A stretch of 64,000 bases of DNA from Sphaerodactylus townsendi. Lineage: Eukaryota. Of the stretch, positions 1-34,100 are shown one piece after another. Both the position numbers and the translations under genes were made by a program. Under the pieces are notes generated by a model. That model did no database searches. It was not told the origin of the DNA and saw only the letters and a program-made list of their open reading frames with translations. Within the stretch, counting starts at the first letter, position 1. Each line of letters opens with the position of its first letter. The DNA is taken from assembly GCF_021028975.2 (NCBI RefSeq), contig NC_059436.1, positions 25,668,001 to 25,732,000 on the forward strand, given 5' to 3'.

Positions 1-3000
1 ATCGTCCTGCGGTGTACCCTTACAGTGCGCCTCTGAATGTACCACAAGGCGTTTTTTGAAAGTCCCAATGCGGGCAGCCAACCCAAAGTTTTTCTAGCAC
101 CCGGCCAGAAGCCTCCAAGAGCCCTATGCTGAGTTTGGCGAAGACAGGCTCCAGGAGGCCCTCAAGAACGGAGTTGACAACGAGGAGGCCCAGAGGCCCG
201 AACTCTCCTTAAGCATGCCGCCAGGAAGGCATACTCCGCTGAGTGCCATAAGCGTCTACAGGCAGGAAGGAACCCCGAGCTGTACGACATGCTCAAAGCT
301 TGCCAGGATATGGTCTTTAAGCCCATCAAGCCAACCTTCTAGTCGCCCTTCCTCTCTCCCATGCCATGAGGCAGCCCGAAACGAGATGTTTCAGTGCGGC
401 AAGCCAGGACATTTCGGAGAATTGTAGGCTGCCTTGGCCGGAGACCTACAACCCTGGCGGAGGTCTCTCCCCAGAGGCGAAGACCCCAGGAGAGTCTAGG
501 GCGGCTCCCAATGCCGCTGGGGAGGCCAGCCGGGCATCTCCCAGCCGGAATAGATCGCACCTCAAACCCCTTCCCGGAGCTCCCCACTTAAGGATCTTAG
601 CTGCTCCAGCTCAGTATAGTGATCCCATCCCCACGGGGAGACCATTAGAGCTGGTCTTGCCAAAGCTTCGCCAGCTGGTGGGGTTGGAAATTTCATCATC
701 AGGGGTCGCCGACCCCAGCCACCAAGGAGCCATCACATCCAGAGTATGGACAAACGTATCCTGCAGAAACTGCCAAGTTCACGGAACCCTGCCTCTATGC
801 TCTCACTTGAGTCTAATCTAAGTTCAGCTAATCTCTAAATCTCGTTGCTCGCTCCCCCTCTACGTCTACTTCTGCTCTGCTAGCCTTCTACTTCAAAGTC
901 ACCATGCCTCCGCCAGTGCCCCAGTAGCATTTCAAAATCTCTGCAGAGTCCACAGTCACTGAATTGCAGCGAAGGAATGCTGGCGGAAGAAGGGACTGCC
1001 GTTTGAGCCCTCCTCAGAGAATGCCCATAGCCAATCTACAGGACAATGAGGCATGGAAAGGGGAAGATGCTACTTCAATGTAAGCCAAGTCCTTCGTGAA
1101 AGAAGAAGCCCCTTGGCCCTCTCCAGCTGTAAGGTTCAAACCAGATCACTTGTACCTCTGAGCCTGTGCAAAGCCCTAAGCTCAAAACTCCCCAGTGGCA
1201 GCAAAATCGTCAGCACACCTCAAGAGCAAAATCTCAAATCAGAGTTACAATCCTCCCTCGTTACTTTATATGTGCTCCTGTATGCCTATGTATGTTCTGT
1301 ATGTCTTGCCCCTTTCAAAGAGACCCTAAAGTTTTCCCCTCATAGGGGATTTTTCCATGGCTCCTAACCGATGCTCTTATGCTTCAATTAAAGTTTTTCT
1401 CCCTTCTGATTATGTGTTACTTAATGCCTTGAAGGCTTAAGCCCATTACAGCATCCGCCTTAAGCGGGACACAGCTCGTCGTGCTCCCCAGGATACGATG
1501 GGACCTGCTTCAAGCAGCCTCCACATCTCTTAGTTTAAGCCTTCAAAACTTTTCTTCAAACCTCTCCTTGAGAACCTTTTCCTTAGTCATCTGAGCCTAC
1601 ACTGCCACACTGGTGGTATGGGGTTACATATGAAGCCAAAATCATTTCATGCTCCACATTCTCTGCTGGGGGGCTCCCTGGCTAGTCACAGTGCCAAAGG
1701 GGTCTCTCAGCCACACCTATCTTACACAGCCTCCGCTGTGAAGGTAGAAGCGACTCAAACCGGCAAAGTCCCCTTACGGAGGGAAGGTAGAGCTGACTTC
1801 CAAACCCCTTCCCCTGCCTTCCTTCTGCACCACTCCCACTCTTTCTAATGGGCTGACGCACCCCCACCCCTCTAGATCTAGGATCCTGATAAAGGGCTTT
1901 GCAAACCTCTCAATTTGCTCCTGTGATCAAACCTCAAGCCCAGGAACATTTTCTTTGCATCTTCTCTATATACTTTCCCTATAGGCGGCTATATTACGAT
2001 ATGACTATAGTGTGAATTGTTCAAGTTGCTTTGCAAAAAAACCCCACACCTTAGACGGTGATTGGGATTGTTTACAAAACAAACATCCGACCTGGATATG
2101 ACCTCTCCCTTCTCCCTAAGCCTTGAGGGCAATTCCGTATCTCTTAGCGCCTTGAATGTTGCAAGTGATGGATTTGTCGGAATAGACCAGCTAAGCCTAA
2201 CAGCTTAGCCCAAAACAAACAGAAAAAAAGGGGAGTAGTTCCCCTATTGACCAATCAAGGTCTCATCCAGACCATATCCAAAGTACTCTTATATTTCTCT
2301 ATCAAAATTGCCGCCCCCCCACTCAGATACGGGCTTTCCATTGTCATCTATAAGAGCGAATTAACTCAGCCAGCCGCCAAAGCCTGGGAAAAGCGTCGCT
2401 TACTTTCTCTTCTATACAGGAGTCCAGCTAGCCATGCCAGACCAGCCCATCCCGGAATGGGCGGGGCCTCCCCTGGAGAATCGACCCGCCCAGCCCTGTT
2501 GAGAGAGAGCCCGATCACCCTCAGCCTGGGCAGCCAGATGGGAGGGACACCCATTCTTGCGGAGATCGCAGCAGGCTGCCATTTGGGGCCAGCTATGGCT
2601 CAAGGTTGACGCTGTGTGTAGCTGCTCCTCATCTACAGCCATTCTCTCCCTCTCTGCAGCCCCTGGCTGAAACTTGGAATTACGGCCAGGAACATTCCCT
2701 GATAGATTAACCATGGAACTCTCAGCTGTTTTCCAGCCTTGAATAATTGTTGGAACCGCCTTCTCTCACAACCTTATAGAATCACTGAACCTGCAATGCT
2801 AAAGACTATCAGTAGCTCTCCCCTAAGCTCTTGAGAAATCCATGGACTCTAGCGTCGTAGCTCTGTAGCTTTGGTGGCAGTCAGGCAGCAAAGAGTATTG
2901 CATTGGACAATTATACAACCAGGGTTTGCCTTCCTTCCATCCATCATCCAGCCTATGTGTCGTTTAGCCATGTTTTGCTGTTTAAATTTATTGCATGCCC

Positions 3001-4141
3001 TAGTTTTGAAGTTATGTTATTTGTTATTGCCATTCATACTGTCTGTCTGGGGTTTCTACCCAGGCTCCACCCAGAACTGACGCCCGCCCGCCCGCCGCTC
3101 GCTCTGCGCTGAAGTCCCTCACCAGCCGGCTTGGCCGGTCGCCCTCTCAAAGCCAGACCTGTCCCCTGTAACTTCCTTGGTAGGAGCCCCGGACTTGTTT
3201 CCTGTAACACACCAAGACTATTGGCGGCTGGCCTGTGCCCTTGCGAAGCCCATCAATTCTACCTCCATTGCTCTGGGCTCTGGCCTCCGAGCAGCAGAAG
3301 ACCGTCAAGCGACCCTAGACAATGCGTGCAGCTATTGATTACTTATTGTTATTACATCCCCACCAAAGGTTGTGAATGTACATAATATGTGTTGTTTAAT
3401 CTTTCTGATATTGAATTGATTCATATGAAGATGCATTGAGCTGCAAAGTTGTATCTAATCTGAAGTATGATGTTTTGCCCCATTGGTGGTCAGCCCTCTG
3501 GTGGAGCTGGCTGCCGGGAGGAGATGGTTGAGTGTTATTATTTTAGCTCTGCATTGGTTTAATTGTGTGCCACCGTTATCCGGATCTTGTTTAGTTCAAT
3601 GTGTGTCTAATATTGCCTGCTTTGTGCAAGAAGCCCCTGAATTTCCCTTACCCCGCAGCCAAGTTCTAATGTTACACACAAGCAGCTTGGTCAGCTTGAC
3701 CAGATGAAGCGGAGGAGACAAGCGTCCCCTTCATCGCCCCTTAACATTTCGGTCCCCTTTTTTTTCTAAAATGCTTAAAGGAGGAGATGTAGTGATGCAC
3801 TGCTGACCCAGCAACACACCGTGGTGGAAACGTTGGGGCGCTAATGGACCTGGCTTGCTGGTGCGCCGCACCCCCACTCCTCATCCCCCTATGAGTCACG
3901 GGTCATGAACTGTCTGGCTCAGTCACCGGGCGCAGGGACAATGGTCTTGCCCCCAGGTGAGGATTAGGCTCAGACGCTTACGCTCCTCTCCGCAGTAGCC
4001 AGGTGAGATCATGCATCACATGATGATCTCCAGGTCTCCCGGTCTCCAGCTCATCTCCTACCCACCTCCTTTACCGCCCACAATGAAACCCTAATAAAAA
4101 AAAGGTGCGAGAGACCAGCACAGGTAGAGTTGTCAGGATCA
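1..4141 (+). mobile_element. Heavily degraded Ty3/Gypsy-type LTR retrotransposon (gag zinc knuckle, RT remnants, PPT and 3' LTR); 5' part lies outside the window
   Basis: About 384-425 encodes a frameshifted C-F-x-C-G-K-P-G-H-F..C CCHC knuckle. ORF 1053-1367 (V.QVL...LSSCK...NLKSELQS) resembles the Gypsy RT thumb motif LSKC.F...P.N.KELQSFLG. A purine tract AAAGGAGGAGA (3777-3787) is followed directly by TGT at 3788, with AATAAA at 4093-4098 and a possible CA end near 4141. Many indels; no intact ORF. Confidence 0.6.
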
Positions 4142-4395
4142 TGAAAACCCGCGCTTCCTGTTGCTGACGCTCTCCGCCAGATGAAACCTCCTCCGCGTCT
4201 CGCCTATTCCTTAGCGACGACCCTGCGGGGTTGACAACACCCCCGAAAGTAAGACGTAGCAAAGTTTTTGTTTGGAAGCATGCCTGACGAACAGAACACA
4301 GAAAAATAAAGACATCCCCTGAAAATAAGGCATAGCGCATCTTTGGGAGCAAAAATTAATATAAGACACTGTCTTATTTTTGGGGAAACCAGGTA
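4142..4395. mobile_element. Terminal fragment of a Tc1/mariner-superfamily (Tc2/pogo-like) DNA transposon
   Basis: Ends in ...gagcaaaaattaatataagacactgtcttatttttggggaaaccaggta. This resembles the reverse complement of the TA-CCGTGTTTCCCCGAAAATAAGAC TIR of vertebrate Tc2-like elements (recalled), and the aaaataag subrepeat recurs internally. Left boundary is approximate. Confidence 0.5.
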
Positions 4396-5102
4396 GATGG
4401 GGGCAGCACCTCAGTGGTGGGCTGATGAGATGGGTGGCGCACCACCAAGTCTTTGCCCCTTGGTAGGGGAAAAGGCAGGCAGACTTTGAGGCCAAGGGTG
4501 AAAGGGAGAAGAGTAGAATCCACCACCCCTCACCAAACAGGGGGGAATGCACCCTGCACTGCTAACTCTCCCCACGTCTTCCTCTCATCCTCCCCAACCT
4601 GGGTGCACTAGTCCAAGACCACGCTGCCGCTATACACGTCTTCAGGCCGCAACTCCAAATGGGACCTCCACCCAAAGGCAGGGAGCCTCCAGCCAATCGG
4701 TGCAAGGACACTGCACAGTCCACGCAGGGCAGCGGAATGGAAACAGCCTCTCCCTCCCCCAGCAACTGCTCTTGAGCCTGGCACTGCAATGTGGGCAGCG
4801 AGGCTTCACCTGGTCACCAGAATCCGCCTTAGCCAGCTAAAACTTCTGGCCACTGTGGCAGCCATCCGGTGAGTCCCAAAACTGAAACAGTCTTCATATT
4901 AGCTGTCCTGAAGCTACTGCCCATCAATTTAATCGGGTGCCCCAAGGTCTAGTTTTTTGTGAAGTGGGACTGAAAGTTATACACACACACACCCGGCCAT
5001 GATTTATGTGGGAAGAACAGCTTCAAAAAGCCCAGTGTGGTCAGGATGCTGAGTTCTGCCCACATTCTTGGATTAGGCTTTTTTGCATGGGCCACTGATA
5101 GG

Positions 5103-6882: not shown

Positions 6883-9800
6883 CTACAGGATCTCGTACTT
6901 GTCCACGAGGAAGGTGGTCTCTGTAGAGAATCTCACAGGGCTGTTCCCATCTACCTGGGTCACTTTGGTAACCTGCAAAGAGAAGAAGGGCACAGAGTGA
7001 ATTGCAAGGAAGCATGGCCTGGAACAGTTCACTGGGCACGTTATGGGGCAAGACCACAGGGTGTCATTCGCCAAAGCAGACAAGACTCTAGCGATGCCAC
7101 ACCCAGTCTGGAGAATGGCCATCAGAGGGGGGCAAAGTCCAAGCACAACTTTTATGCTCCAGCGTGTGTCCGGACAACCCAAAGCAGGTTTAGGGGGTGC
7201 CAGCCACGCAGCACCGAGTCCCCAGCTCAACCTTGGCCATTCTCAAGTAAAAGCATCTCCAGGAACAGGGCTGGGAAAAAGCACCCGAGACCCTGGGACA
7301 AGCACTCCCGAGGGCCTGATTCCAAACAAGCATCTCGGGGGGGAAAATCCGTCCAATTCCAAAACGGGCTGCCGTGTTGCCTACAGGGGACGGGCGGGGC
7401 CAGCACCGCTCTAACCTGGATGTTGCAGTAGTTCTTCTTGGACAGGAAGGAGACGTGCACAGGGAAGAAGTCGTTGGGCTGCCCGGCAATGCTGAACTCC
7501 AGGCTGCCGCTCTTGTTTTTGGCATCGATCACGGGCAGGCACCACTCGAGGAGGTTCCTTCGGCTATCGTGACGGTACTCACCATCGATCTCACCAATCA
7601 CGGGCATGCCCACACCGGACCTGCACAAGCAACCGCAGCTTATGCCCAGGACACGCCCCCGCGCCCCACCCTGTGCCTAAAGAAGAGCATCTCTCTGACC
7701 TGGAGCCAGAGATCAGTGTGCTGGGGAAGCGGGCAGAATGGGAGCCCACTGGCGGGAGCCCACCACGGTCATGTGACTCACGGCAAGGGAATGGTGATCA
7801 CCACGTCGCTCAGCTCCAGGCTCTCCTCCTGCAGCTCATACTCAATGTTGACATCGCAGCCACTGCCGCTCTCCGATGGCCAGCAGTTTACTGAGGCAAA
7901 GAAGAATTGCCACACAAACACACACACGTGAAACAATGGTAACAAACAAACTGCAAAAGGGGCAGCAGGACCGGCTCCCCACCCTCCCAGCACCTCCACA
8001 AGACCCCTCCCCACCAGGGCAACCCCAGCTGCACTCACTTGTCAACGGGATGAGAGACTCTTCCATGGTCTGTAGCCGCCACTTCAACACCCCCACGTCA
8101 CTATTGATGGGGAAAGACTTTTCAGGGTTCTTCAAGCCAATCAAGGACTCTGTTGTAAAGAGCTTCTTGTCAACATTGGGATGAGTCTGAGAGGGAGAAA
8201 GGAAGCACCAGAGCAGGGGGTGAAAAGTCACGTGGCACTTCTGGGCAGATCAAGCACTTTTCCCTAATCGGTGCCACAGCTTCTGGACATCAAGCAGGGG
8301 TCAACAAGCCAGGTGCAGGAGATGCAGGCAACCACCAGTTTTCTAGCCACGTTTGTAAGGGGAGGGTGAGATGAAAGAAAGGGCAACTCTTCACTCCCCC
8401 CTGCAGAAAGAAAGAGCCATAGCGTAGCCTACAGATCCGCCCACAGGTCGAAGGCTGTGGGCCTCGCTCTAGCACAACTCCGGGCAGCCTGGTGGCAAAC
8501 AGCCAGAGTCCAGCTGAAGACATCCAGGCCCTCGCTCCGGACTGGTGCCTGCAGCTGCCTGCAGCTGAGGCCACCCCAGCTCTCCTTGCAACAGCCAGGC
8601 CTGTGTACCTGCAGTTGAGCACCCTTCTTGTCCTCGTTCTCAACATGGATCCGAATCCGGGCAAACTTTTCATCCTGGACCCGCAGCATGATCATGCCGT
8701 GCAGCTCCATGTTTTGTAGCCCCCCATCACGGCCACAGGTTAACGTGATCTTCTCCTCGATTTTCATGTGCACGCTAGAGACAATGCAGCACAGCAGAGG
8801 CTTTACAGCGCTGCCATTTTCTGTGAAGGCAAGCCACCTCAGTGGGGGGAGACCAGTTGGCCTGGGGGTCTCCTGGCTACTCCCCTTGGGGTATTATACC
8901 TTTGCTTACAACCCTTGCACTGAATGTGTCTCTAAGCTAACCTTCTCACCAGAACAAATCATCTCATGCTATCTGCAGGATCTCTATTCCTTGTTCTGTG
9001 CAAGTCCAGGCAGATATCGAAAAGAATACCTCCCGGGGACCCACATACTTGAGTAAGAAAAAAAGCACCATCCAGCTGGAGGGCACCTGAAAACCCCCAA
9101 GACACTCAGAAGTGCACTGCAGACTTCCCAGCGATGTGTCTGTTTTCCACTCACCTCTCCATGTTAACAGGTGGAGCAAACACTGTGGCTGCTTCAGAGG
9201 ATCGTTTGCCAACTGAAGAGGTTATGATATTTTCTCCTTCAGATTTTAACTTGTCCACAAAGTTATCGACTTCTTTCCCCTTGGCACCCAGCTTGAGTGC
9301 CTTATTCGATCCAGACGGCCTAAGAAACAAGCAGGATACTCTCAGCCTAATAATCACACCAGGCAACAACGTGGCTTGTCAGAGCAGACAGAGGGCGTGA
9401 GCAGGACCACTGCTGTCCCCTGGTTGCAGCACCATGGACAGTAGCAGAGCCTCAAAGCACTTGCGGCTGAAGAGATCAGCTCACACCAACTGCAGCTCAG
9501 GAACACAGGTTCCCTTCACTGCCTCACAGCACGCCCTGGCTTGGCCAGCAGGGACTCCTCTCCCCAAACATACTTTTTACGTGTATGGATGTGTGTTGTC
9601 AAGTCACAGCTGACTTATGGCGACCCGTGGTGGGTTATCCAGGCAAGTGATCTTTGGAGGTGGTTTGCCACTGCATGTCTCCACGCTGTGACATTGGGGT
9701 TCCTTGGAGATCTCCCACCCAAATACTAACCAGGGTGGACCCTGCTTAGCTTCCCAGATCTGAGGAGATCAGGCTGGCCTGGGGCTGTCCAGATTACACA

Positions 9801-11562
9801 GACACACAACAGTAAAGCTGCTTTCAGACCTCGTTGGCGCAGGAGTCACTTTTGGCTTTTCCGTCTCAATGATCGTCTCTGTGATCATGGCAGCTGTCGT
9901 GCCTCCTGACAGAGCGGAACTTCCAAAGCCACCAAAACCAGGTGCTTTTGTGCCCCGTCGCTCAGCATCCCTCCGTGCCTGCTGCAATTCCTTGGCTTTT
10001 CGGCGCATTTCAGCTTTAGCCTCACGTTCTTGTGTCTAAGAAACAGAGATGCTACCAGTTATTAAAAACAAACTCAGTGCAACAAATCAAGGACCCCATA
10101 ACAACAGCAGGCCACTGACCCCTGCAGTTTAGACAGTAGCCAAACAGCTGCCCTGGAGGGCATCAGAGGAGAAAGAGGGAAGGTCTTGCATTCACCTCAC
10201 GGACAGCTCTGAAGACTTTCTCCTCATGTGAGTCCATCTCTGTGAAAGTGCGAATCTGGGCCAGGTTGACATTCTCCCGGTACCCGAGGGCAACGATCTC
10301 ATCAAAGGCAAAGATTAGATCAAAACAGTGATCAGAAATCTCATTCTCTTCCAAGGCTCTGCAGTACTCAGGGATCTGGGTGGAATGAAAGAATAAAACG
10401 GCTTCTGAAAACACGAAAAAGTTGCCATTCTTTTAATTTACCCTGTTCGTACCCTCCTTTTTCCACCATGAGATTGGCAGCCCAAAAACCAAATATCTGG
10501 CAAGGATAGCTCTGACCCCCAGATGGGACAGTTGTAATGAATCTTACGTAAAGCTGCCTTTGAAAACACACTGAAACCTTCAGTCAGTACAGAACTGGTT
10601 CGACTGGAGAGGGCACAGAGTGTCTTGCTAAGAACTGGGATGCCCAAGGTTCAACCCCCCTGCCTGCCCCTGCCATGGGAGACTTCCCTCCCTCTAAATC
10701 ACCCTGTGGGACTTGTGTGGCAGTGAGAGCAAGGCTGGAAACTACCTTAAGTGTTCAACGGGAAGCAACACGGCGCAGGAACCTCTACGCAGGCCGGTGC
10801 CGCAGCCAGAGCCCTGTCTGGGGCTGGTTGCTCAGCGGACCTCGCTGGCCGGGCGGGCACCGGGGCTGCTGCTGCCTCTGCGTGTGAGTGCGCGCGTGTG
10901 CCCCCTCGCCCCCCCTCGCTCACCACCCTGGAGAAGAGGCGGAGGGTCTCGAGGTCCTCGAGGATGTTGCTGTTCTTGGTGGTGATGAGCACCATGTAGA
11001 GCTTCTCCATGGGCTGGTAGACGTAGCGGACGCTCTCCGTCTCCACGAAGGTGTGCTGCTTGCCCGTGTTCATCAGCTTGGGGAAGGCGGCCAGCAGGCC
11101 CTCGATGCGCGTGCGCGTCATCTCCACGAACTGCCGCGACACGATCGCCTTGCCGGCCTTGGTGCACACGGCGGCCGCCAGCAGCACCTGCAGAACCCCG
11201 GGGAGACAGAGCAGGCGCGTCAGAGCGGACGCTCTCCGTCTCCACGAAGGTGTGCTGCTTGCCCGTGTTCATCAGCTTAGGGAAGGCGGCCAGCAGGCCC
11301 TCGATGCGCGTGCGCGTCATCTCCACGAACTGCCGCGACACGATCGCCTTGCCGGCCTTGGTGCACACGGCGGCCGCCAGCAGCACCTGCAGACCCCCCC
11401 CCGCCCCCCCGGGGGAGACAGAGCGGGCGCGTCAGGGCGGGCGGGCGGGCCAGCCCCCCCCCCTCCGCCAGGTGCGCCCCTCGCGCGGCCGGACCCCTCC
11501 CCCCGCCCCCCCCCCCCAGGCCGCCCCCTCCCCTCCCCTCCCCTCCCCTCATGACCCACCAT
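6883..11562 (-). CDS. ARCN1: Coatomer subunit delta (archain 1), 511 aa, 10 coding exons
   Basis: Exons (-): 11560-11562 (ATG only, gccgccATG|gtgggt), 10924-11187, 10196-10375, 9830-10035, 9155-9319, 8609-8774, 8039-8186, 7782-7890, 7416-7620, 6883-6972. All GT-AG; total 1536 nt. The protein [40 protein letters not shown]...[15 protein letters not shown] is unmistakable delta-COP. Confidence 0.97.
9590..9792 (-). mobile_element. 5S rRNA-derived SINE (5S-Sauria-like) in ARCN1 intron 4
   Basis: The reverse complement reads gcctgatctcctcagatctgggaagctaagcagggtccaccctggttagtatttgggtgggaga, a diverged 5S rRNA A/C-box region. A Sauria-type body (ggcaaaccacctc...gtcgccataagtcagctgtgacttgac) follows. 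A second copy lies at 60780-60990. Confidence 0.75.
11224..11435 (-). repeat. Tandem duplicate of the ARCN1 intron-1 branch point/acceptor plus the first 54 codons of exon 2
   Basis: 11224-11392 matches 11025-11193 at a 199-bp offset with one synonymous change (g11080/a11279). The intronic parts differ in C-run length. Confidence 0.92.
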
Positions 11563-11846
11563 GGCGGCGGCGGCGGCGGCGGCGGGTCTGGCTCCTGCTC
11601 CGCTGCAGAGGCTGCCACACAAGATGGCGGCACCGAGCCACGTCTGCCAGGCGGAAGCGACGTCAAGACGCACGCGAGGGCGACGTGGCCCGACCTGCGC
11701 CACGCCCACCCCGCGAGCCCCGCCTCCTCCTCCTCCGCCGCTGCTCTCGCGATGCCCGCGGGGCCCGCCCCCCGCGTCTCCTTGGCGACGGCGGCGACGT
11801 CGGGGAAGGGAGGCGGCCGGACTCGCCCGCTGCGCGCTGCCCCCGG
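11563..11846. promoter_or_regulatory. Bidirectional CpG-island promoter shared by ARCN1 and IFT46
   Basis: Divergent start codons at 11562 (-) and 11847 (+) in CpG-dense sequence. YY1 consensus CAAGATGGCGGC at 11620-11631, ETS-like GCGGAAG at 11651-11657 abutting CRE-like CGACGTCA, and RFX X-box-like GTCTCCTTGGCGAC at 11776-11789. Confidence 0.75.
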
Positions 11847-14331
11847 ATGGCGCGGCCCTCCCCGCCGCCCGAGGCCGGGCTGCTGCAGGCGAGCGTGGGC
11901 GGCCCGCGGGGCTCGGGGGCGGCGCTGGGGGTGCCGGCGGGGCCGCTGCAGACGCGGCTGGTGGAGAACCAGCCCTACGACGAGAGCCTCGACGTCGCGG
12001 AGCCCGAGGACGTGGCCAGCCTCGACGCCCCCAGCCCCGCCCCCGCCGCCCCCCGCCCGCCCCGAGCCGCAGCAGGGGCCCCGCCCCGCCCGGACACCAG
12101 CGACGACGACGACGACGACGGGGAGGACGGGGAGGACGACGGGGCGGGGGGCGCGGGGGGGCGCCTGAAGCAGGCCGGGGGGGCCCCATCCCGCCCGCCG
12201 CCCGCCGGCCCCGCCGCGCCGGGGAAGAAGGGGGGGGCGGCCCCGCAGCGCCGCTTCAGCGAGAACGAGGTGGAGGACGAGGACGAGGACTCCTCGGAGA
12301 CCGACTCGGAGGACGAGGACGAGGAGCACGGAGCCCCCCTGGAAGGGTGCGTGGCTGCTGGGGGCGGGGGGGGGCGCCCTGCTGCGCCCCCAGGCCCTCC
12401 CGCCCTCCGCCCTCTTCTCCTGGGCGGGCAGCCCGTGGGGCACCAGCTGCCCACCATAGCCCCCCTCCCCCCAGGAGCCCGCCACCTGCCCCTTTGAGCA
12501 CCCTCCACCTTTCCTCAGGGCTTACAACCCAGCGGAATACGACTGCCTGACCGTCTCTCTGGAGGTCAAAGACCTCTTCCAGTACATTCGCAGGTGAGGG
12601 GGGAGGGGGCGGCTGGGGGAGGGGGCCGGGCAGCCCCGGGGCTGAGCTGACGGCCTCTCTGCCTCCCAGGTATTCTCCACAAATGATTGACCTTGAGCAC
12701 AAGCTGAGGCCTTTCATCCCGGACTTCATCCCTGCGGTGGGGGACATTGATGCTTTCTTAAAGGTGAGGGGCTGGTTTGTGGCAAGGGATCCCAGCCAGC
12801 CAGCCAGCCAGCCTGTTTCTCACCAGGGCAGAGACTCCTGTGCCCCCCTCCTGGGGGTGGGGGGGGGAGGTCCCTGTGGCAGAGGAGGAGGGCTTCTCCT
12901 TCTGACTGCTCTGTGCCTGGTCTGCTGCTTCGTGCTTCCGGGGAAGGCCCTCTCAAGCAGAAGAGGCAAGGCCACCACCACCGTCTTGGCTCCTGAGCTG
13001 CCTGTTGCAGGTTCCTCGCCCAGATGGGAAGCCAGACGACCTGGGGCTGTTGGTGCTGGATGAGCCCTCCACGAAGCAGTCGGATCCCACTGTGCTCTCT
13101 CTCTGGCTTACGGAAAATTCCAAGCTGCACAACGTGGCTGTAAGTAGGCAGGCAGGCAGGCAGGCGGTGGAGGCTCTGTGGACCAAGGAGCAGGAGCTGT
13201 TGGGGGAATTCAGCCCGGGGAAATCTGGTTTGCATTCCAGCAGCAGGTAAAAGTGAAGAGCTTGGAGAATGCTGAGAAGAACCCCAGAGCCATCGACAGC
13301 TGGATCGAGAGCATCAGCGAGCTCCATCGCTGCAAGCCTCCAGCCTCTGTCCACTATGCCAGGTGGGCCGGCCGGCCGCCCCCCCCCTCCCCAGCCCTAC
13401 AGGGAGGCCCTTCCTCATTGGGTGCTCCTGTTTAGCGGGCAAAGGGCCTTCCACACTCCTGCTCCACCAGGAAACTTGGCTGGCGGCAGGGCCACCTTAA
13501 CACTGCCCTCCTTTGTCCTTCTTTGTCCCTTGCAGGCCCATGCCTGACATAGATACGCTGATGCAAGAGTGGTCCCCTGAGTTTGAAGAACTGCTTGGGA
13601 AGGTAGGCAGGCCCACTGATGAGAAAAAGTCAACTCCCCTGGTCTTTGATGGGGAGGAAGGTAGGCTGAGGGATGGGTTTCCACAGAGCTGCCTCAGGTG
13701 CCACTGCAGGTAACCAAGTGGCTGCTCCTTCCCTTCATCCTGCTCAGGTGAGCCTTCCGACAGCAGACATCAGTTGCAGCCTTGCCGAATATACAGACAT
13801 GATCTGTGGTGAGTCCCCTCTGGGCCTCCCTGTGTGGAGCTCTCCAGTGGCACAGGGGCAATTCCTGCCTGGTTCTGCTTGGGAGCAGGTGTGGGCTGGC
13901 TGTTGCTGTGCCAGGCAGGGTGACTCCTCTGGCGTGGCGCTTGTTTTCCACAGCAATTCTGGACATTCCTGTCTACAAGAGCCACACGCAGTCCCTACAT
14001 ACGCTGTTCTCCCTTTACTCTGGATTTAAGAACTCTCAGGTACAAAGAACCCCTTGGCTAGAAGGGGGGGGGGAGCGGGGAGAATCAGTTTGGTTGTGGG
14101 GAAGAGGAGGAGCACGGACTCCACGTGCCAGCAGCCTCCTCCCCCAGGGACCTGGTCTGAGTTTGGGCAGAAATCAGGCTCCAGAGTGAAGCTGTGTAAC
14201 GAAAGGGCATTGTGTGGGAATGTTTTACTTTACAGCACTTCGAGGCTTCAGCTGAGGACAAGAAGGCAACCAGCCCTCCTTCCAACACCCCTTCCCAGTC
14301 TGGAGAGACGGATGTCCTGAGTTTCCCCTGA
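11847..14331 (+). CDS. IFT46: Intraflagellar transport protein 46 homolog (IFT-B), about 409 aa
   Basis: Exons (+): 11847(ATG, start uncertain)-12346, 12519-12593, 12670-12763, 13011-13139, 13241-13362, 13536-13602, 13748-13808, 13954-14039, 14236-14331. Total 1230 nt, in frame. Peptides RLVENQPYDESL, HGAPLEG, KLRPFIPDFIPAVGDIDAFLKVPRPDGK, DEPSTKQSDPTVL and PMPDIDTLMQEW match IFT46. Confidence 0.93.
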
Positions 14332-31100: not shown

Positions 31101-34100
31101 GACAGCGGGGGAAGAGGCTGCCACTTTAACGCCCGGTGACCAGCAGTCTGCCCAGACATGGAGCCCGGGTGCCTGAGCCCCACACAGGGAGAAGGCTGCA
31201 AAGCAGGAATGTTCCCGCACACAGACAGGATGCCCCCAGAAAAGGGGTGCCCAATGTCTACAGGTGAAAGCGTGTACTTTGGATTGTGCCCATAGAGGAA
31301 GCTGTTAGAGCAGCTTCTAACCTGGGCGAAGAGATGCCACCTCACTTTGTCATCCTGCTGATGGGGCTCCCACCTGGTGCCAACCTCACTCTCCTTCAGG
31401 GACCATTTTTAAGGGGTGGGGGCGGACCTTCCTTTCGCTGATTTCCTGGCATGCTTTTAGCCTGAGGATTGTTTTCATGCCTAGCATGGGAGGTTTCTGC
31501 TGTCTGTCTCACTTTAGCTGTGAGCCACCTCAGGTAGCCAGCACCGTGGGGAGGCGACACACACGCGTTCTATTTTTAAAATGAGAATAACCACCCACAT
31601 CAGGTGCCAGGCACAGCGGGAGGAGCCATCGTACCCTGGAGCCCTGGGCCAGGGCTGCTCCCCGTTTGTTGTGCCTTCAGGGCAGGAATCCTCACGTTTG
31701 AATGCAAAGCTGGCCGAGGTTGGCTTTCCCTTGTGGGCAGGCCTGGCCTCTGGGTGGTGTTTCTGGACAAGAGGCAAAGCCCTGCCTCTTGCTCAGGGCT
31801 GCCAAACCCAGACAGAGCCTGTGCAGGGCAAGGCTGGCAACGAGCAAGAGGCAGGGCTCTGCCTCTCGTCCAGAAACACCACCCAGAGGCCAGGCCTGCC
31901 CACAAGGGAAAGCCAACCTCGGCAAGCTTTGCATTCAAACGTATGGACTAAAACAAATAGAGGTGATCTGGAATCAGACAGGAGCCCCCGACTGACACGT
32001 AGCACCTTTGAACCTAGCACAGATGCTCCTCAGTCCCACCCCACCCCTGCTAGCTCTTTTTCCGTCTGGCATCCCCCCCCCCCGTACCCCCACTACAGCT
32101 GACAAAGCAATAAGACCCAGAAAGAATCCCCCCTCCCGCTCAGGGGTGTTGGAGGCCATCCGCTGGGCCCTCCGGCCCTTTCATTCTCCTGGCTGTGGAA
32201 CAGCCAAGCGGAAGGGCAGAAGCGGAAGGGCCGCGGAGGGGGCTCTCTCCTCTTACCCGACACACGAGGAATCCTGGGCTGCTGCACAGGCCCCTCGGTG
32301 GGACACGTGTTTCTCCTGCGAAGGGCCCCAAGGGTGAGAGGGTTTGTGCTTCTTCCCGGACGCTTTGCTGTCTGAGGAGGGCTGGAGCCTCTTCACTTTG
32401 AGCTTGGCTTTCAGGGAGCCTGGCCCAGAGCAGGCGGGGGCTGGCTGGTCAGCAGGTGGGGCAGCGGAGTGGGGATGGGCAGCCAGAGGGGAAGGTGGGC
32501 TTTGTTCTGGAGCTGCAGCATCAGCAACGTCCACCAACGGAGGGAAGCACGAGAGCGAAGCAGTCTGTGTAGGGACGAGGTCCTCCTTGGACAGGACAGT
32601 CCCGGTTTTGCTGCCTGGTCCGGGTGTCACAGGCTGGTAAGACCCTTCTGGGTCTGTGGTGGTGATGCCCACAGGCTGTGCTGAAGGCAAGGCACAGGGG
32701 CCCGAGGCTGCAGCCAGTGCGGAGGTGGGGCCAAGCTGTGAGAACAACCCCGAGCCAGTGGCTGGCCCACCCGCATGCTGCTCTGGGAGGCCCAGGCCCT
32801 GCTGGGAGGCTTTGATCAGCAGGCTGCTGAGAGAGCCGAGGTCTGGGACGCCCTGCAGTCCAGGGCTGCCCAGTGCCACTGACCCAGGTCCCAGCACATG
32901 CCCAGGAGCCGCTGTGCCCGCAGAAGACACTGCTGCTGATGTCTGCATAGGGACCACGTTCAGAACAGACGGCGTGGCACTGAGGCCAGCCACAGGTCCC
33001 GTGGCCAGGTGTCCTGATTCCTGCCCAGCCGCAGGAGGGGGGGTCCCAACCCCAGCTGCTGCAGCCTGGGGCAACAGGGTTGCCTGCTCAAAGTACATCA
33101 CCCCCGCCTTGGAGCGCTTGATGATGTTGGGGAGGGTTCTGTGGGGGGCAGAGTTGCTGCCTGTTCCCAGATCCAGCAGGCCCGAATGGCTGGGGAGCTG
33201 GGAGGGGGCGAAGTTGATTAGTGTCATGTTTGAGACCAAGTCAGGAGAGGCGGCAGAGGAAGGGGCCACCTTCTTATGCTTCCGTGACGGCAGGCGAGCG
33301 ATAGGCCTTTTCTTGACCAGGCCAGCAGAAGGGGTGGTGGCCGCAGGGCCAGCATCCGCCCTCTGAGTGGCTTCTGGCTCGGGTGGCTGCTGGACACCAA
33401 TCAGCAGGCCTGGGGCAGGGCTGCCAAGAGCGGGCGCGAAGCCACTCTGGGGCGCTGCGGAAAAGGAGTGCAGGTGCTGGTGATGCGGCAGAGGCAGCAG
33501 ACCTTTACTGGCCGGAGGAAAGAGCGGCTGGGACGAGGGCAAGCCGGCCAAGGCCAGCCCGGCACCCATGGGCCCGAGCACAGAAGGGCTGGCCTCCATC
33601 ACGCCCTGCGCAGAGCTGACGGAGGAGGTCAGCTGTATCTTCTGGGTGACCCCGTTGGGAAGAGTCTGCAAGACGTAGAGCGGCTGCATGTTCTGGTTCA
33701 CCACTAAAAGCTTCTCGGCAGCCGCCTTGAGATGGTGGGGGCCAGCCTGCGCAGCAGCACTCGAGATCTGAGACGGGCCCGGGCTCTCTGCTGAGTTGGG
33801 ACCGTATTTGGGGCTCTGAAGAGGGAGGGAGGGCGAAGCTGGGACCGGGAGAGCAGGTGTCCCGCTGTTCCTGGCCAAATCTTGGCTGGCTCCATGGCTT
33901 TGCTCAACTTGCCCACAGGGCGGGCTAGCAATATGGTCTGCCTCCAGGTGACCCTGAATGAAGGGGTCAGGGGTCATATGTCCTTCTGGGCTGGGGTCCA
34001 CTGGTGGGCTTAGGAGAGCTGGCTCTCCTTCACTCGTGGCAGGTTTCTCCGAGCCCGCCACTCTCTTTTCCGCAGAATCTCCGGAAGACAAAGCTAACAT

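Follow-up and report, generated by a model that had tools for sequence, protein, structure and literature searches.

Assembled vertebrate genomes contain false exon gains, in which read depth falls away between the copies and which arise from incorrect gap filling or from error reads (PMC9516828), and homotype false duplications, which lie at contig boundaries and are about as long as a read (PMC8081667), as far as the available portions of these two sources describe them. Genuine systems with duplicated or competing splice sites are also known. The IVS7 minisatellite of F7 is presented, in the part of the source at hand, as a real multi-copy VNTR with a 37-bp unit that lies over an exon–intron boundary, duplicating splice sites at the donor as silent pseudo-sites (PMC1557585). 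In SYNGAP1, a haploinsufficient gene, an upstream acceptor adds sequence, shifts the frame and leads to an early stop, according to the accessible text on this NMD-coupled 3' splice site (10.64898/2026.08.26.745682).

The ARCN1 locus analysed here shares traits with each of these systems. Like the false duplications described in the available parts of PMC9516828 and PMC8081667, it holds a read-sized tandem copy of part of an exon within a gene, is unsupported between the copies, coincides with a contig break, and carries private letters that are missing from the read-derived contigs. Most false duplications in the portion of PMC9516828 consulted are separated by gaps, whereas the ARCN1 junction has no N; the copied segment, moreover, measures only about 200 nt. 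The geometry on paper is that of SYNGAP1 as outlined above, but the second ARCN1 acceptor lacks support from DNA or RNA contigs and the unproductive isoform was not found in the listed contigs. In contrast to the repeat reported for F7 in the text available, the ARCN1 repeat has two copies, covers an acceptor and is seen in the assembly only. A non-exhaustive search of the open-licence literature returned no report of a duplicated exon 2 or a second acceptor choice in ARCN1. Taken together, the data described below indicate that the extra copy is very probably a false exon duplication, produced when overlapping pieces of the assembly were joined without being merged, and not a real feature.

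ARCN1 lies on the minus strand of the window, the term used here for the whole stretch of 64,000 nucleotides that was analysed. The translation of exon 2 (11187-10924) is identical to residues 2-88 of the coatomer subunit delta chain PDB 5a1u_H (87 residues, E 2.7e-51), and the named matches from the protein search are coatomer subunit delta, which identifies the product as delta-COP; with the 88-aa exon 2 piece as query, the Pfam Clat_adaptor_s match fell under its cut-off. Ten ARCN1 exons, positioned by their borders, give an open frame of 511 aa, the length of the 5a1u_H chain; the protein is ordinary in comparison with coatomer subunit delta provided that exon 2 is counted once. In all probability, the underlying locus holds one copy of ARCN1, whose first intron is short and rich in GC (Table 1).

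Table 1. Features of the ARCN1 region, with their positions in the window, strand and the observations bearing on them.
Feature	Position	Strand	Observation
Coding part of ARCN1 exon 1, consisting of the ATG alone; GT donor next to it at 11559	11560..11562	-	Exons 1 and 2 are joined in RNA contig X4-17
ARCN1 intron 1, 173 nt, 85% GC, 59% G, 13 runs of at least 3 G	11387..11559	-	X1 contigs fragment inside it
Copy A acceptor region: CTGAC branch-point-like motif (A at -46), pyrimidine tract, G7-C-G9, CTGCAG; likely the true acceptor	11387..11435	-	Intron form found in S2 contig
Copy A of exon 2, covering its initial 163 nt (54 codons + 1 nt) and lacking a donor; likely spurious	11224..11386	-	Private letter 11279 absent from listed contigs
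Copy B intron piece, 36 nt, G-run shorter by 13 nt, two substitutions; likely an error-laden piece end	11188..11223	-	No read-derived support, junction 11223/11224 included
ARCN1 exon 2, complete, 264 nt, 88 codons, GT donor 10923	10924..11187	-	PDB 5a1u_H match; RNA joint 10375-10924 at depth 738; contig X4-17
ARCN1 exons 3-10	6883..10375	-	Open 511-aa frame with exons 1 and 2; RNA check covers the exon 3 acceptor only

The repeat itself is unambiguous in the assembled sequence. A direct repeat of 175 nt (11025-11199 and 11224-11398) has 99% identity and a spacing of 199, and a looser intronic pair (11196-11231 and 11408-11443; 36 nt, 89%) has a spacing of 212. Tandem repeat analysis with TRF gives a period of 199, 1.9 copies and a score of 734. 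Self-BLAST with a word size of 20 recovers the repeat (E 2e-85) as the sole direct pair within the 64 kb, and chance can therefore be set aside as its origin. Each copy has a CTGAC motif (11435 and 11223) and a CTGCAG acceptor, with exon starts at 11386 and 11187. The repeat search, TRF and self-BLAST thus bear out the earlier note, made from the sequence alone, which had described two copies 199 bp apart with these motifs. Its list of differences between the copies holds in kind (a synonymous SNP, an intronic SNP and the G-run length) and falls short in number: there are three substitutions, one more than listed, at 11080/11279 (synonymous), 11195/11394 (position -8 of the acceptor) and 11213/11425, together with a 13-nt indel in the G-run. 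Three of these four differences lie within 36 nt. At the junction, 11223/11224, the window has no N, and the joined sequences share a 4-nt CCGC microhomology.

On paper, the two acceptors have very different consequences. Use of the second yields the in-frame exon of 264 nt, whereas use of the first yields an exon of 463 nt with a frame shift of +1, as the earlier arithmetic had it. The stop that had been predicted at 10832 (10834-10832) applies only to a message that still contains intron 2; once this intron is spliced out from the 10924 donor, the 463-nt form stops in exon 3, at 10370-10368. A premature stop more than 50-55 nt upstream of the last junction generally exposes a message to NMD, and this one lies 1171 nt before it, a distance that would suffice on paper only. 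Two ways of restoring the frame were considered and rejected. By eye, none of the nine GT dinucleotides in the exon part of copy A has a donor-like context, which agrees with the earlier statement that the upstream copy has no donor of its own and leaves no internal donor to rescue the frame. Nor would another AG do so, as none of the 13 listed AG sites upstream of 11187 (11462 to 11231) is in frame.

The acceptors also differ in quality, with 14/20 pyrimidines in the tract of the second as against 4/20 in that of the first. The first is the likely true acceptor of intron 1; a G-run separates its pyrimidine tract from the AG, which accounts for the 4/20 at positions -4 to -23. Intron 1 is nevertheless spliced out in the RNA contig of sample S3, which does not itself contain the S3 intron allele, and the acceptor is likely to be odd yet working. 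The G-run reads G7-C-G9 in the window and probably G7-C-G11 in S2, and its length seems to be variable; the X1 contig ends in a longer, pure run, which may be a sequencing error.

Public sequencing data were searched for one copy or two. The search listed 14 runs, all in the form of Logan contigs, that is, simplified contigs and not raw or long reads. Four runs from three samples of organism A contain 0.73-0.93 of 247 words sampled from the window. The runs compared with the window were X1 (sample S1), X3 (S2), X4 (S3) and X5 (organism B); X2 (also S1), X6-X8 and X9-X14 (X9-X14 sharing 0.05-0.06), with organisms C-G, lay outside this comparison. X1 and X3 were taken as DNA because their introns are evenly covered, and X4 as RNA because a GT-AG joint spans intron 2 at depth 738. 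In these data each contig has a single flat depth value, contigs that fit both copies are placed once, the list of contigs leaves out 702 pieces, and one X5 joint at a repeat was dropped; a hole in depth alone proves nothing. As described in the available portion of the source, Logan contigs are lossy by design and collapse minor variants (10.1101/2024.07.30.605881). At six sites where S2 or S3 differs from the window (10483, 10485, 10490, 10789, 10861 and 11784), X1 has the form of the window, and S1 therefore carries the haplotype of the window. The assembled animal may differ from S1 and may lie outside the sampled set S1-S3.

Contigs from all three organism-A samples pass exon 2 once, at depths of 76.8 (X1), 48.2 (X3) and about 700 (X4). 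The most direct evidence comes from two contigs that span the site. In S2, a genomic contig of 1583 nt (X3 contig 9) runs from 9830 to 11196 and continues from 11394 to 11488, skipping 197 nt and containing a single exon 2; its continuation has no differing letters and is the copy A form of the intron, with the long G-run. In S3, an RNA contig at depth 693 (X4 contig 17) runs from 10924 to 11188 and resumes at 11596, with 32 letters between. These 32 letters are exon 1, and therefore leave no space for another 199 nt; the contig represents exon 1 spliced to one in-frame exon 2 of 264 nt. For S1, X1 contig 1 is unbroken from 9830 to 11199, through 11054, and ends in 17 loose C. It stops in the G-run without bridging the site, and the intron beyond consists of pieces of 47-50 nt. 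In organism B, X5 is unbroken over 10768-11147 at depth 13, in a contig that does not reach across the site.

What is specific to the duplicated form is missing from these data. The bin that contains the unique junction, 11206-11291, has a contig depth of 0 in 4/4 runs; the adjacent bin, 11292-11377, also has depth 0 in 4/4 runs and is uninformative, as contigs fitting both copies were placed once. The private letter of copy A (11080/11279) is not represented, with no alternative letter at 11080 in any of the four runs, and the copy B intron letters occur in no listed contig of the four. One mismatch in X1 and one in X3 are unlisted; each is probably the copy A intron letter at 11195. The 463-nt exon form was not seen among the listed RNA pieces, and no X4 piece covers 11206-11377; this concerns one sample without NMD inhibition, in which a rare form is possible.

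A real duplication should also leave a mark on assembly graphs. With k=31, the form in the window would break contigs at 11054, 11079, 11110 and 11194 and give a junction unitig of 89 nt (11165-11253). All four runs are continuous through 11054, and neither a break at 11054 or 11194 nor the 89-nt unitig was seen, although X1 pieces as short as 46-51 nt are listed. Bubble removal could mask the breaks at the SNPs, but should not join sequence across 11054 beside a junction path of half or full depth. Weak paths do survive in these data: X4 keeps an intron-2 contig of depth 51 next to a spliced form of depth 738, and X1 keeps pieces of depth 10-22. The word counts are compatible with a single copy and not diagnostic: 90/2432 of the 31-mers, or about 9 sampled words, are unique to the duplicated form, and X1 lacks about 17/247.

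Two testable marks of a false duplication are thus present, namely unsupported sequence between the copies (the junction bin, in contigs and not reads) and spanning sequence with one copy (X3 contig 9 and X4 contig 17, S1 contributing the missing branch only). Two testable marks of a splicing switch are absent, as the bridging genomic contig has one acceptor with the junction missing from the runs examined, and the listed X4 RNA has the single in-frame contig in place of a frameshifted isoform. For these reasons a false duplication is favoured. The earlier note had named single-copy spanning sequence as what would refute the duplication, and the S2 genomic and S3 RNA contigs are such sequence. 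Its artefact reading is therefore supported, while the particular version it gave, a merge of haplotypes, is not borne out by the listed contigs, in which the private letters do not occur and which collapse alleles.

A simple model would explain how such an error came about. One assembly piece, coming from intron 2, would cross exon 2 and end in a degraded read-through of the G-run, which would be the 36-nt copy B piece. A second, from the promoter side, would cross the G-run and end 163 nt into exon 2. Their overlap of about 212 nt would be discordant at four places and so remain unmerged, and the piece ends would be butted or gap-closed on the 4-nt CCGC match, leaving a read-sized tandem repeat without an N. 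The site of the duplicate is the G-rich intron 1, in which the read-derived contigs fragment. Apart from one letter in copy A, the unsupported letters appear to cluster in the 36-nt copy B intron piece, as would be expected at a poor piece end. Read errors (homotype) are favoured over a second haplotype (heterotype) as the source of the discordant letters, and fit at least as well because the private letters of both copies are absent from the listed contigs.

Against an assembly error stand the junction without an N gap and its microhomology, which fits real replication slippage as well. These same features would also fit a real, private or heterozygous tandem duplication in the assembled animal, formed through microhomology slippage or unequal exchange at the G-run, an origin we regard as improbable. 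G-rich introns are plausible replication stall sites, which counts in its favour. Contigs of the kind used here also drop minor alleles, as the part of the source at hand indicates (10.1101/2024.07.30.605881), and the better tract of the second acceptor would make the allele tolerable. On such an allele, part of the message would be lost to the frameshifted 463-nt exon, with its stop in exon 3 and predicted NMD, unless the second acceptor wins; that the assembled animal carries a private ARCN1 allele of this kind, in which two acceptors 199 nt apart compete and the first, interrupted by the G-run, loses to the second, whose own G-run is collapsed, is marginally more doubtful again. S1, which has the haplotype of the window, shows neither a branch at 11054 nor a junction piece at a depth of 77. 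A new event should moreover give identical copies, and these differ at four places, three of them within 36 nt. Three substitutions and one indel per about 212 nt exceed the density between S1 and S2, where 4 listed substitutions and 1 indel fall in 1367 nt. This density argues against a biological origin, because a new duplication should be identical and an old one shared by other animals. ARCN1 is also haploinsufficient in humans according to the accessible text of PMC13761915, which weighs against an allele that loses message.

The same haploinsufficiency makes attractive the switch envisaged in the earlier note, a fixed, built-in arrangement of two competing acceptors in which the upstream one leads to NMD and tunes delta-COP dosage, yet it makes a fixed NMD leak less likely. 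The geometry in the window permits such a switch, with its 463-nt exon and distant stop, and NMD-coupled alternative 3' splice sites exist in dosage-sensitive genes, as the available text on SYNGAP1 illustrates (10.64898/2026.08.26.745682). A fixed switch requires the duplication in every animal, however, and the bridging S2 contig and the S3 RNA each have one copy, with no branch in S1 or organism B. In a search with the read-through frame as query, the junction peptide or a doubled core occurred in 0 of 120 of the 474 protein matches, and the native continuation in 112/120, a weak point in that the matches are mostly from other species. With its junction in no run examined and no 463-nt form in the listed RNA, the frameshifting competing acceptor finds no footing in these data, and a fixed switch is extremely unlikely. 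It is also very improbable that a fixed or common duplication was erased from every run by simplification of the Logan graph. Lossy contigs and the use of one pipeline for all four runs would allow such an erasure; a junction path of half or full depth would, however, form a loop and not a small bubble, and weak paths were kept (X4 at depth 51 beside 738, X1 at 10-22). An assembly error thus remains the preferred explanation.

Several other features of the window were recorded. The neighbour of ARCN1, in head-to-head arrangement, is IFT46 (Pfam IFT46_B_C at 12671-12763, E 1.1e-14); the two start codons diverge and are 284 nt apart (11562-11847). This gap is bridged entirely by one RNA contig at depth 693, which links ARCN1 exon 2 with IFT46 exon 1 and may point, in contigs that are unstranded, to a two-way promoter with overlapping 5' ends. 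Compared with the window, this S3 contig lacks 9 nt at 11784 and, at 11561-11595, where a GCC repeat precedes the ARCN1 ATG, seems 3 nt shorter in that repeat (32 as against 35 letters); both differences are ordinary length variation in the shared promoter or UTR. ARCN1 intron 4 holds a short interspersed repeat, recognized by eye on the minus strand at about 9620-9790, with a putative head that we take to be 5S-rRNA-like. Comparison of the window with Rfam yielded 0 matches at gathering score. Downstream of ARCN1, positions 1-4400 look by eye like a decayed retroelement-like stretch, with no ORF above 151 aa and 5 ORFs of 100-151 aa. Finally, 31694-31942 is a near-perfect palindrome of 249 nt that folds as DNA into a single long hairpin (-142.7 kcal/mol; z -23.3 relative to 200 shuffles). 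Judged from its sequence, this may be a transposon of the foldback or miniature type, or else a further artefact of the assembly.

As an artefact, the duplication matters for curation alone, since automated annotation of this assembly could report ARCN1 as broken or as having a duplicated exon. Similar tandem copies of read size, where they lie at G-runs within first introns rich in GC, need a check against reads before they are interpreted. If the duplication were nonetheless real in one animal, it would set two acceptors in natural competition within a haploinsufficient housekeeping gene, and such a private allele would offer a natural test of 3' splice-site competition where dosage matters, an NMD switch in the course of being born.
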